18,249 bases of DNA from the IMG/VR virus record IMGVR_UViG_2651869725_000017, one strand, 5' to 3'. Under the pieces are notes generated by a model. That model saw only the letters and a list, made by a program, of their open reading frames with translations, was not told where the DNA came from and did not search any database. Each line of letters starts with the position of its first letter. Positions within the stretch are counted from its first letter, which is position 1. A program made the translations under genes and the position numbers. Of the stretch, positions 5,447 to 9,077 are shown piece after piece. This DNA is from a virus. Its lineage: Duplodnaviria; Heunggongvirae; Uroviricota; Caudoviricetes.

Positions 5447-5647
5447 ATGATCCTGAAACAAGATCTGAAATGGTCACCGGACGGTATGCGTGTTGAGGTC
5501 ATTCGGGCCGGTGAGTATGACGACGGGGCGCTTCCTGCCCGGGTGCAGGAGATTGCACTTCAGGCCGGGTTAGCAGAGCGCGGAATCAGTGCAAAAAGCA
5601 GTAAAGCGGCAAAAGAGAAAAAAGCCACGACCAGTAAAGAGGGCTGA
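5447..5647 (+). CDS. Hypothetical small protein, 66 aa
   Basis: Co-oriented ORF filling the capsid-connector gap. Its 3' end carries the AAGAGGG ribosome-binding site for the next gene (ATG 5650). Own ribosome-binding site is weak; no family recognised. Confidence 0.45.
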   Translation: MILKQDLKWSPDGMRVEVIRAGEYDDGALPARVQEIALQAGLAERGISAKSSKAAKEKKATTSKEG

Positions 5648-6380: not shown

Positions 6381-6861
6381 TTTTCAGCAGCCCGCGGAGA
6401 TGCGCTTTAACCGCGCCCGTGTCCGGCGGGCGTTTGTCACGATTGGGCAGCGTCATATGCGTGATGCCCGTCGGCTGGTGATGCGCCGTGCGCGGTCGGC
6501 ACCGGGTGAAAACCCCGGTTATCAGACCGGACGCCTGGCTCGTTCGATTGGTTATATGGTGCCGAGAGCCAGTAAAAAGCGAGCCGGTTTTATGACACGC
6601 ATTGCCCCTAACCAGCGCAACGGGAAGGGGAACCGGATGATCTCTGGTGACTTCTATCCGGCGTTTCTGTTTTTTGGTGTCCGGGGAGGAGCAAAACGTC
6701 GTCGTAGTCATCATCGTGGTGCATCCGGTGGCAGCGGATGGCGATTGGCTCCACGTAATAACTTCATGGTGGAAACTCTTGAAAAGAACCGCAGCTGGAC
6801 ACGCTATTTTCTGGCGCGGGAATTGCGTAAATCACTGAAGCCGGAGCGACGACACAGATGA
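6355..6861 (+). CDS. HK97 gp10-family neck / tail-completion protein
   Basis: GGAGG 6 nt upstream of ATG 6355. Contains a TGRLARSI motif that I recall as typical of the HK97 gp10 family. Very arginine-rich C-terminal half. Confidence 0.6.
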   Translation: MATPFFHVDFQQPAEMRFNRARVRRAFVTIGQRHMRDARRLVMRRARSAPGENPGYQTGRLARSIGYMVPRASKKRAGFMTRIAPNQRNGKGNRMISGDFYPAFLFFGVRGGAKRRRSHHRGASGGSGWRLAPRNNFMVETLEKNRSWTRYFLARELRKSLKPERRHR

Positions 6862-7418
6862 AACTGACGCCTGTTATTGCTGCGCTGCGTGCCCGCTGCC
6901 CGTATTTTGAAAAACGGGTGGCAGGCGCGGCACAGTTCAAAAATCTGCCGGAGGTCGGAAAGCTGAGACTCCCGGCGGCGTATGTGGTACCGGGTGATGA
7001 CTCTCCGGGAGAAAACAAAAGCCAGACCGACTACTGGCAGGAGCTGAAAGAGGGCTTCTCCGTGGTTGTCATACTGAGTAACGGGCGTGATGAGCGCGGT
7101 CAGTTTGCCTCGTATGATGTGGTGGACGATGTCCGGCAGATGCTCTTTAAGGCCCTGCTGGGCTGGAACCCGGAAGCGTGCGGTAACCCGATTACCTATG
7201 ACGGCGGCACGCTGCTGGATCTGAATCGTCATGAGCTGATTTATCAGTTCGATTTTTCGGTCATCAGCGAGCTGACTGAAGACGATACCCGCCAGCAGGA
7301 TGATCTGAACAGTCTGGATGAACTGCAAACGCTGGCGATTGATGTTGATTATCTCGAGCCCGGTAACGGGCCTGACGGCGATATCGAACATCACACCGAA
7401 ATAACCCTTCCTTCCTGA
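6858..7418 (+). CDS. Mu gp37-like tail protein (tail terminator/completion candidate)
   Basis: 186-aa ORF with ATGA overlap to the upstream gene, placed immediately before the sheath block as in Mu-like tails. Family assignment from memory only. Confidence 0.55.
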   Translation: MKLTPVIAALRARCPYFEKRVAGAAQFKNLPEVGKLRLPAAYVVPGDDSPGENKSQTDYWQELKEGFSVVVILSNGRDERGQFASYDVVDDVRQMLFKALLGWNPEACGNPITYDGGTLLDLNRHELIYQFDFSVISELTEDDTRQQDDLNSLDELQTLAIDVDYLEPGNGPDGDIEHHTEITLPS

Positions 7419-7426
7419 GGATCCTC

Positions 7427-7597
7427 ATGTTTGTCAAACCTGTTAAAGGGCGGTCAGTGCCTGACCCTGCCCGCGGCGACCTTTTGCCCGCCGAAGGGCG
7501 AAATGTTGACGAGAACAACTACTGGCTGCGCCGTGAAGCAGCGGGTGATATCCGGCGCGTGAATAAAAAGGTGAACACCGATGACGATAAGCTTTAA
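7427..7597 (+). CDS. Small conserved phage protein (Mu gp38-like), 56 aa; absent from the ORF track
   Basis: GAGGA at 7417-7421 with 5-nt spacer to ATG 7427. Hand translation: MFVKPVKGRSVPDPARGDLLPAEGRNVDENNYWLRREAAGDIRRVNKKVNTDDDKL, stop TAA 7595-7597. Overlaps the sheath start (ATG 7581) by 17 nt. Resembles small proteins found upstream of sheath genes in Mu-like tails. Confidence 0.6.
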   Translation: MFVKPVKGRSVPDPARGDLLPAEGRNVDENNYWLRREAAGDIRRVNKKVNTDDDKL

Positions 7598-9077
7598 CAC
7601 CATTCCGTCGAATACGCTGGTTCCGCTGTTTTATGCGGAAATGGATAACCAGGCGGCGAATACTGCACAGGACAGCGGAGCATCGCTGCTGATTGGTCAT
7701 GCCAATAACGGTGCAGAGATTGTTGCCAACAGTCTGGTACTGATGCCGTCGGCAGACTATGCACGCCAGATTTGTGGTGCGGGAAGTCAGCTGGCGCGTA
7801 TGGTCGAGGCTTATCGCCAGACCGACCCGTTTGGCGAGCTGTATGTGATTGCCGTTCCGGAAGCCACAGGCGCGGCGGCAACGGTTACGCTGACGGTGAC
7901 CGGGGAAGCAACCGAAAGCGGCACGGTGAATGTCTATGTGGGACGTACCCGCGTGCAGGCTCCGGTGACCAACGGCGATAACGTCACGACGATTGCCAGC
8001 AGTATCCAGGATGCCATCAATGCCGTTCCGACTCTGCCGTTTACAGCTTCATCTTCGGCTGGCGTGGTCACACTGACCGCGCGTCATAAGGGGCTTTGCG
8101 GGAATGAAATTCCTGTCAGCCTCAATTACTACGGCTTCGGTGGGGGAGAAGTGCTGCCTGCGGGCGTACAGATTGCCGTGGCGGCGGGGACCGCCGGAAC
8201 GGGGGCTCCTGTTCTCACCGGCGCGGTGGCTGCAATGGCGGATGAGCCGTTTGATTATATCGGTCTTCCGTTCAACGACACGGCCTCCGTTAACACACTG
8301 GTGACCGAGATGAACGATACCAGCGGTCGCTGGAGCTATGCGCGTCAGCTGTATGGTCATGTGTATACGGCAAAGATCGGCACGCTGTCAGAACTGGTGA
8401 CCGCAGGTGACCAGTTTAACCAGCAGCACATTACCCTGGCGGGGTACGAAAAAGAGACCCAGACGCCTGCCGACGAGCTGGCAGCCAGCCGTACCGCCCG
8501 CGCAGCGGTGTTTATTCGCAACGATCCGGCACGTCCCACGCAGACCGGTGTGCTGGTGGGTATGCTGCCTGCGCCGAAGGGGAAACGGTTCACGATGACC
8601 GAACAACAGACCCTGCTGTCTCATGGCGTGGCAACGGCGTATGTCGAAAGCGGGGTGCTGCGCATTCAGCGTGATGTCACCACGTACAGGAAAAATGCTT
8701 ACGGGGTTGCGGATAACAGCTACCTCGACAGCGAGACGCTGCATACCAGTGCGTATGTACTGCGCAAACTGAAATCCGTCATTACCAGTAAGTACGGGCG
8801 TCACAAGCTTGCCAGTGACGGTACCCGCTTTGGTCCCGGTCAGGCGATTGTCACCCCGGCGGTGATCAAAGGGGAACTGCTGGCAACCTACCGTCAGCTC
8901 GAGCGCGCGGGGATCGTGGAAAACTACGAACTGTTCAAGCAGTACCTGGTTGTGGAGCGTGATGACAGCGATCCGAACCGCCTGAACACGCTGTTCCCGC
9001 CTGACTATGTTAACCAGTTGCGTGTCTTTGCCGTGGTTAACCAGTTCCGTCTTCAGTATTCAGAGGAGTCTGCATAA
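7581..9077 (+). CDS. Contractile tail sheath protein (Mu L-like)
   Basis: 498-aa ORF followed directly by a 118-aa tube gene with TAATG overlap at 9075-9079. Size and order match myovirus sheath-tube pairs. Confidence 0.9.
   Translation: MTISFNTIPSNTLVPLFYAEMDNQAANTAQDSGASLLIGHANNGAEIVANSLVLMPSADYARQICGAGSQLARMVEAYRQTDPFGELYVIAVPEATGAAATVTLTVTGEATESGTVNVYVGRTRVQAPVTNGDNVTTIASSIQDAINAVPTLPFTASSSAGVVTLTARHKGLCGNEIPVSLNYYGFGGGEVLPAGVQIAVAAGTAGTGAPVLTGAVAAMADEPFDYIGLPFNDTASVNTLVTEMNDTSGRWSYARQLYGHVYTAKIGTLSELVTAGDQFNQQHITLAGYEKETQTPADELAASRTARAAVFIRNDPARPTQTGVLVGMLPAPKGKRFTMTEQQTLLSHGVATAYVESGVLRIQRDVTTYRKNAYGVADNSYLDSETLHTSAYVLRKLKSVITSKYGRHKLASDGTRFGPGQAIVTPAVIKGELLATYRQLERAGIVENYELFKQYLVVERDDSDPNRLNTLFPPDYVNQLRVFAVVNQFRLQYSEESA

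Follow-up and report, generated by a model that had tools for sequence, protein, structure and literature searches.

A DUF2635 (Mu gp38 family) gene between the tail terminator and sheath genes of an SfV-like prophage, and its possible part in contractile tail assembly

In the stretch of DNA analysed here, 18,249 nucleotides of a virus placed in the Caudoviricetes (IMG/VR virus record IMGVR_UViG_2651869725_000017, hereafter the window), the stop of the tail terminator gene and the start of the tail sheath gene are separated by an apparent gap of 162 bp (7419-7580), which raises the question of whether this gap is coding and, if it is, what its product does for the tail. A sequence-only reading of the window had proposed that a 56-codon gene is hidden there, tightly coupled to the rest of the operon, and each detail that it gave (the ATG, the GAGGA ribosome-binding site, the 5-nt spacer and the 17-nt overlap with the sheath gene) can be read in the sequence. 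The coupling is indeed tight at both ends, the GAGGA overlapping the terminator stop and the ORF running on until it stops inside the sheath gene. The translation of 7427..7597 is MFVKPVKGRSVPDPARGDLLPAEGRNVDENNYWLRREAAGDIRRVNKKVNTDDDKL followed by the stop codon, the spacer between GAGGA and the ATG is TCCTC (7422-7426), and most relatives have purine-rich Shine-Dalgarno-like motifs at an equal distance (GAGGAA, GAGAGG, AGGAA and AAGGA). An AGGTG motif within the small ORF is likely to serve as the Shine-Dalgarno sequence of the sheath gene. The features of the locus are collected in Table 1.

Table 1. Features at and around the small ORF of the window, with the basis on which each was placed
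Feature	Coordinates	Strand	Basis or remark
Upstream tail terminator gene	6858..7418	+	PF23840 Phage_tail_terminator, E 1.1e-26; stop TGA 7416-7418
Shine-Dalgarno GAGGA of the DUF2635 gene	7417..7421	+	Overlaps the terminator-gene TGA 7416-7418; read from the sequence
DUF2635 CDS, 56 aa	7427..7597	+	ATG start, TAA stop 7595-7597; ORF listing and translation
Conserved folded core, codons 1-45	7427..7561	+	Alignments; AlphaFold2
Variable charged tail NKKVNTDDDKL, codons 46-56	7562..7594	+	Predicted disordered (pLDDT)
Likely Shine-Dalgarno AGGTG of the sheath gene	7569..7573	+	Inside the small ORF, 7 nt before ATG 7581
Overlap of DUF2635 gene end and sheath gene start, 17 nt	7581..7597	+	Sheath ATG 7581; translational-coupling arrangement
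Downstream tail sheath gene, Mu gpL/gp39 type	7581..9077	+	Pfam sheath domains; match to PDB chain 9khy
Tail assembly chaperone, separate gene	9430..9753		PF10109, E 1.2e-7

There is very little doubt that 7427..7597 is a real gene of the DUF2635/gp38 family. With PF10948 (DUF2635) the protein scores 60.9 bits, the cut-off being 26.6 (E 9.8e-17); its residues 3-47 lie on profile positions 1-45 of 46, and it also matches phrog_208 (E 3.6e-26); no NCBIfam model matches the 56-aa protein. A word-indexed search returned 125 clusters at the 90% identity level, all of them with PF10948, and an exhaustive search with the family profile found 1992 clusters at the 50% identity level at E<=1e-3. Over codons 1-45 dN/dS is 0.064 between the window and ST64B, 0.18 between the window and phiP27 and 0.13 between ST64B and phiP27, with the codon differences concentrated at third positions (2/4/20 and 5/4/18), and the gene is under purifying selection. 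Furthermore, the +0 frame is the sole stop-free frame of the six in all ten relatives compared (63-89% identity). The profile matches, the low dN/dS and the single conserved open frame together bear out the claim that the gap before the sheath gene is coding.

Other ways of reading the same DNA were considered and set aside. Three ORFs on the minus strand (7443..7700, 7264..7518 and 7454..7603) were rejected as genes, not being conserved as open frames in the ten relatives. Fusion of the small ORF to the sheath by frameshifting was also rejected, as the offset of the two starts (7581-7427=154) places the sheath in the +1 frame; a -1 slip at AAT AAA AAG (7562-7570), the only slippery-looking run, meets a stop at TGA 7582-7584 after four codons. 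The presence of this A-rich run just before the sheath Shine-Dalgarno sequence is probably irrelevant. A promoter and terminator scan gave no promoter-like or terminator-like site within 7300-7700, and an Rfam scan of the whole window gave no match.

The segment of the window from 6800 to 7900 is 97-99% identical to the Shigella phages SfV, SfI, SfII and SfIV, likewise to the E. coli phages vB_EcoM-720R4 and SKA5, and is found in 1080 of 5426 complete E. coli genomes, about a fifth; the window is an SfV-like prophage. The same ORF is orf10 of SfV (AAL89419.1), which is situated between orf9 and orf11, carries the GenBank note 'similar to phage Mu GP38' and is followed by a gene (orf11) described as 'tail sheath protein, similar to Mu GpL'. 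In every E. coli match listed the RefSeq/PGAP label is 'DUF2635 domain-containing protein'. Both the gene and its family are already known in GenBank, RefSeq, Pfam and PHROGs, and the description of the gene as hidden is true in that it fell below the ORF-length cut-off used for the first reading, but not otherwise, as it had been annotated both as SfV orf10 and by PGAP. Some phage annotations have nevertheless missed the gene although it is known: in phiP27 (NC_003356.1, about 29200-29361; L004 2501-2662) there is an intact 53-codon DUF2635 ORF without a CDS feature, and in SfIV (KC814930.1/NC_022749.1, 7619-7786) the protein is 100% identical to that of the window, yet there is no DUF2635 CDS and only the sheath gene is listed.

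The window as a whole is a standard SfV-type late operon. Its head part contains the terminase subunits, portal, protease and capsid, and is followed by a neck part with an Ad1 adaptor (PF05135), a head completion protein (PF05521) and Neck1 (phrog_879). The tail part runs from the terminator through DUF2635, sheath, tube (PF10618) and tail assembly chaperone (PF10109) to the tape measure, and the distal genes encode a DNA-circularisation protein, the baseplate, the fibre and fibre assembly proteins. The gene upstream of the small ORF had been called gp37-like, which agrees with its match to PF23840 and with a weak match to Gp37 (PF09646; 0.0014, below threshold); its product is the functional equivalent of the Mu gp37/K tail terminator. 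The sheath of the window matches PDB chain 9khy, a 495-aa 'Tail sheath protein', with an E value of 8e-81, and we take this chain to be the Mu sheath (gp39).

Several observations were made on other genes of the operon and their labels. The terminator family PF23840, to which 6858-7418 of the window belongs, is labelled 'portal protein' in PHROGs (phrog_209), and the same label is found in several RefSeq records, including those of Mu (NC_000929.1 gene 37), SfMu and the Vibrio phage martha (L007 1847-2437); on terminators this looks like a propagated mis-annotation, seemingly from phrog_209. Directly after the capsid gene there is a 66-aa ORF (5447-5647) with no Pfam match, equal in length and position to sb7 of ST64B, a 66-aa hypothetical protein; it is a further small conserved gene that a usual ORF cut-off would pass over. 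In the region 9430-9838 an 85-nt gap lies between the tail assembly chaperone gene and the tape-measure gene, at a place equivalent to that where Mu makes a -2 frameshift product; here there is no extension ORF of at least 40 aa, the only ORF being one of 20 aa with a TTG start (9760-9822). Tail assembly chaperone genes are located between tube and tape-measure genes, and the window has its own there. A chaperone of this kind (gpG/GT, Mu gp41, Phage_TAC_7) was considered as an identity for the small ORF and rejected, the ORF having no TAC match.

A comparison of synteny, which the sequence-only reading had proposed as a check along with the profile search given above, found the same slot in Mu and SfV. 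The order terminator, DUF2635, sheath and tube is kept in SfV, ST64B, phiP27, Mu, Acetobacter phage phiAP1, Vibrio phage martha and a metagenomic phage (L015), and a scan of one genome per species identified 34 loci with the slot in Enterobacterales and Chromobacterium. In 31 of these 34 genomic loci the terminator stop is followed after 3-14 nt by the start of the small ORF, and of the 33 loci that have the sheath in view 32 show a small-ORF stop overlapping or adjoining the sheath ATG, by 1, 4, 11 or 17 nt. The slot is also kept in the tail-like bacteriocin element of Pseudomonas fluorescens Q8r1-96 (DVM-2008), a cluster that has no head genes (PMC2647930). Judged from this gene content, the function of DUF2635 would seem to belong to the tail itself, because the gene is retained in a headless, DNA-free cluster of the tailocin type.

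Three of the loci are irregular and may be degraded or rearranged prophages. In two phiP27-like prophages, of Shigella flexneri SFBU1023 (L028) and E. coli ECMA0423 (L029), the alignment of the terminator homologue begins only at residue 75 and the small gene has no intact terminator ORF next to it, and in Pantoea gossypiicola (L049) the sheath ORF is 697 aa long and aligns only from residue 162.

The protein consists of a conserved core and a variable tail. The signature of the core is M-F-V-K-P-x2-G-R-x-V-P-D-P-x-R-G-D-x-L-P-x2-G-R-x-V-x4-Y-W-x-R-R-x3-G-D-[VI], and the residues K4 P5 ... D13 P14 ... G24 R25 x V27 ... Y32 W33 x R35 R36 ... G40 D41, which are invariant or at least 90% conserved in a 27-sequence alignment and 40 cluster representatives, are all present in the window protein; 17 residues are invariant across the 27 homologues. 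AlphaFold2, run with 27 sequences, predicted two strands (residues 2-5 and 42-45), short bridges and, ahead of the second strand, a helix at 31-39, with a pLDDT of 92-95 for residues 1-40 and of less than 50 for residues 49-56. Among 122 cluster representatives the tails have a median length of 23 residues, and are rich in A, K, E, P and T with 12% hydrophobic residues; 60% of the tails have two or more K/R among their last eight residues. Among the 150 best cluster representatives a length of 50-100 aa and a domain start at residues 1-10 are the rule, in keeping with the window protein, in which the domain takes up residues 1-45 at the extreme N-terminus. Every feature of the DUF2635/Mu gp38 family that was compared, from HMM match and signature residues to protein size and genomic slot, is found in the window ORF. 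Sequence searches of the PDB with the protein and with the family profile gave no matches in either case, and a Foldseek search of the PDB with the AlphaFold2 model gave nothing significant (best YqbF, E 1.2). Against BFVD Foldseek returned only uncharacterised small phage proteins, the best being J7FAS5 of Agrobacterium phage 7-7-1 (prob 1.0), which at 68 aa is equal in length to 7-7-1 gp125.

The family also contains rare long forms, in which the domain is found at the extreme N-terminus and is followed by a Pro-rich linker and a large C-terminal part (fn3, or fibre-like G-x-x-R-Y-N...W motifs), and these are encoded in neck or fibre modules and not before a sheath gene. P0157 (L009 3036-4244) is a 402-aa protein with an N-terminal DUF2635 and an fn3 domain; its gene has the Ad1 adaptor on one side and Hc1/Neck1 on the other, in a neck module that is related to the one in the window. 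P0202 (L008 1580-3793) has 737 aa with fibre-like motifs and adjoins Gly_rich_2 fibre genes, P0251 (L014 2964-3356; 130 aa) is encoded downstream of a Mu_Gp48 baseplate gene, P0193 (L013 2958-3473) adjoins a Laminin_G_3 gene, and P0207 (L012 769-1575) is another rare long protein with an N-terminal DUF2635. These architectures look like those of virion appendages with an N-terminal anchor, and suggest that the DUF2635 domain may be a portable anchor.

The domain of the short form appears to have changed together with the sheath. Over 30 loci the pairwise distances of the DUF2635 core are correlated with those of the sheath when the terminator is controlled for (partial r 0.67, Mantel p 0.0005), and the corresponding value for core and terminator with the sheath controlled for is r 0.01 (p 0.39). 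A mosaic breakpoint separates the terminator from DUF2635 in Enterobacter sp. BIGb0383 (L027), and also in L043 and L005; compared with the window, L027 has a terminator of 40% identity but a DUF2635 of 76% and a sheath of 80%. Such co-variation could be due to physical co-adaptation or merely to the tighter recombination linkage of overlapping genes.

It is at this point that the role of the protein has to be considered. Its function had been called uncharacterised and this still holds true, with a full-text literature search on 'DUF2635' and 'PF10948' finding no paper, no experiment on any member of the family being found in the literature, and gp38 being one of the proteins that cryo-EM of Mu could not place. 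The explanation that we consider best overall, and which we would hold almost as readily as we would doubt it, is that the small ORF is an SfV-like late-operon DUF2635 gene encoding a core that is a docking module and, in its short form, an assembly factor. The core would dock on the Mu-type contractile tail, most probably on the sheath protein, and the short form would be an accessory factor in tail assembly that is not retained in an ordered, stoichiometric form in the finished particle. Made from the same mRNA as the terminator and the sheath, it might for example hold or cap new sheath subunits until these have polymerised on the tube and their last ring has been locked by the terminator. 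That the short form is a transient, sheath-linked assembly factor is a tentative proposal which we would on balance not yet bet on; it is made because the gene is co-inherited with that of the sheath, because its translation would be coupled to that of a sheath of ~180 copies and because it is retained in a tailocin, and furthermore because its product is absent from three high-resolution reconstructions of necks and tails and from one virion proteome. A broader version is rather doubtful, namely that DUF2635 is a portable tail-docking module, that the short form is a co-translated and sheath-specific assembly factor, binding free sheath subunits or the growing end until it is displaced when the terminator locks the tail, and that the long forms anchor fibres or Ig-like appendages.

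The evidence from particles bears on this proposal and equally on a rival one, that the short form is a minor component of the virion, its core being permanently anchored to the neck, to the terminator or to the upper end of the sheath (as a minimal collar, a decoration or a 'sheath terminator') with the disordered tail exposed, and that it has been missed as it is small, low-copy or flexible. Cryo-EM of Mu at 3.3-3.5 A (3.4-3.5 A for gp37, gp39 and gp40) modelled gp29, gp36, gp37, gp39, gp40 and the baseplate, with gp37 alone capping both the tube and the sheath, whilst gp35, gp38 and gp41 'could not' be resolved; the authors nonetheless list gp38 as 'probably structural' (PMC11915804), and the curated GenBank record of Mu names it 'putative sheath terminator protein'. 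The terminator-sheath junctions of Mu, Milano and 7-7-1 (~3.5 A) are fully assigned to terminator, sheath, tube and, where present, collar, with no protein from this slot, and no chain in the PDB matches the DUF2635 profile even though the sheaths 9khy and Milano 8fop have been deposited. The Milano models contain no product from the slot between terminator gp18 and sheath gp20, and gp125 of 7-7-1 (L011 8733-8939), a 68-aa protein encoded between terminator gp124 and sheath gp126, is absent from the neck and tail models of that phage. This gp125 is probably a remote member of the family, as its alignment with the family profile by hhalign is collinear (E 5e-5, prob 67%; below the Pfam threshold). 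It was not among the 24 virion proteins identified by MS against a six-frame database, in which a protein as small as 3.2 kDa was detected, but even the 7-7-1 terminator, of which a virion has 6 copies, was only just detected, by a single peptide (PMC3517404). Not to be seen in cryo-EM maps or by MS is evidence of a negative kind, and a low-copy, flexible or easily lost component would be missed in the same way. Furthermore, the long forms, in which fn3 or fibre-like parts are fused to the domain and whose genes belong to neck or fibre modules, have the look of virion appendages, which argues that the domain can be a permanent anchor. We regard permanent residence of the short form in the virion as unlikely.

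Two further rivals would make the role one of translation or of the DNA, and both seem to us very improbable. The ORF could be a translational device, a short and strongly initiated upstream cistron that, by terminating within the sheath start, delivers ribosomes to the highly expressed sheath gene, its peptide being dispensable; the strong GAGGA directly after a low-copy gene and the nearly universal 1-17 nt overlap of stop and start with the sheath gene would suit this, yet a dispensable peptide is at odds with a conserved amino-acid sequence (17 invariant residues in 27 homologues, dN/dS 0.06-0.18), a fold predicted with a pLDDT of >90 and a domain that is also fused to other proteins away from sheath genes, and the sheath gene has an AGGTG Shine-Dalgarno sequence of its own. 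Alternatively the Lys/Ala/Pro-rich tail might attach to the end of the DNA or accompany it along the tube, in line with the A/K/E/P-rich composition and frequently basic ends of the family tails and with the Rho_N/LEM-like small phage proteins among the weak Foldseek neighbours. These structural matches are however non-significant (E > 0.1), the tail of the window protein itself is short and net acidic (NTDDDKL), and the gene has been kept in a DNA-free, headless tailocin cluster. A transient factor of sheath assembly stays our preferred reading of the short form, at the tentative level given above.

Few conserved genes of the Mu/SfV tail module still lack an assigned role, and DUF2635/gp38 is among the last of them; it occurs in Pseudomonas tailocin clusters and in roughly one in five complete E. 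coli genomes, yet in no solved structure. Sheath co-variation, retention in tailocins and the modular long forms narrow the question of its role without settling it. An assigned role would complete the parts list of a minimal contractile tail and could matter for the engineering of SfV-type tailocins; if the broader version given above is right, the short form would be without precedent as a dedicated sheath chaperone or cap in phage tails and tailocins.

Compared with known systems, the small ORF is least like the proteins that complete other contractile tails. The genes of T4 gp15 and P2 gpS also lie close to that of the terminator or sheath, and their products are required for completion of the tail, but these are present in the virion as ordered hexameric rings. 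In Mu, by contrast, the ring of gp37 does the capping alone and gp38 is unseen (PMC11915804), and the small protein has no Pfam, NCBIfam, PDB-sequence or significant Foldseek match to the tail-completion families of the T4 gp15 and P2 gpS type. The resemblance to 7-7-1 gp125 is closer, as this too is small, sits in the terminator-sheath slot and has a matching predicted fold (Foldseek prob 1.0), and the gp19 slot of Milano is likewise between terminator and sheath; 7-7-1 and Milano differ in having a large collar, which SfV and Mu are not known to have. Closer still is Mu gp38 (Mu_38, AAF01116.1), which shares with the window ORF the DUF2635 domain, the slot between gp37 and gp39, an N-terminal core with a variable tail, and overlapping stops and starts. 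Unlike the window protein it has 67 aa and a longer basic tail, and its gene overlaps the terminator gene by 14 nt where that of the window follows it; the 42% identity of the two (tblastn) and the SfV annotation uphold the likeness to small proteins of Mu-like tail clusters that had been noticed from the sequence. Finally, SfV orf10 and the corresponding genes of SfI, SfII, SfIV and the E. coli SfV-like prophages encode a protein 100% identical to that of the window, with equal flanking genes and overlaps, and the window ORF and SfV orf10 are the same gene.
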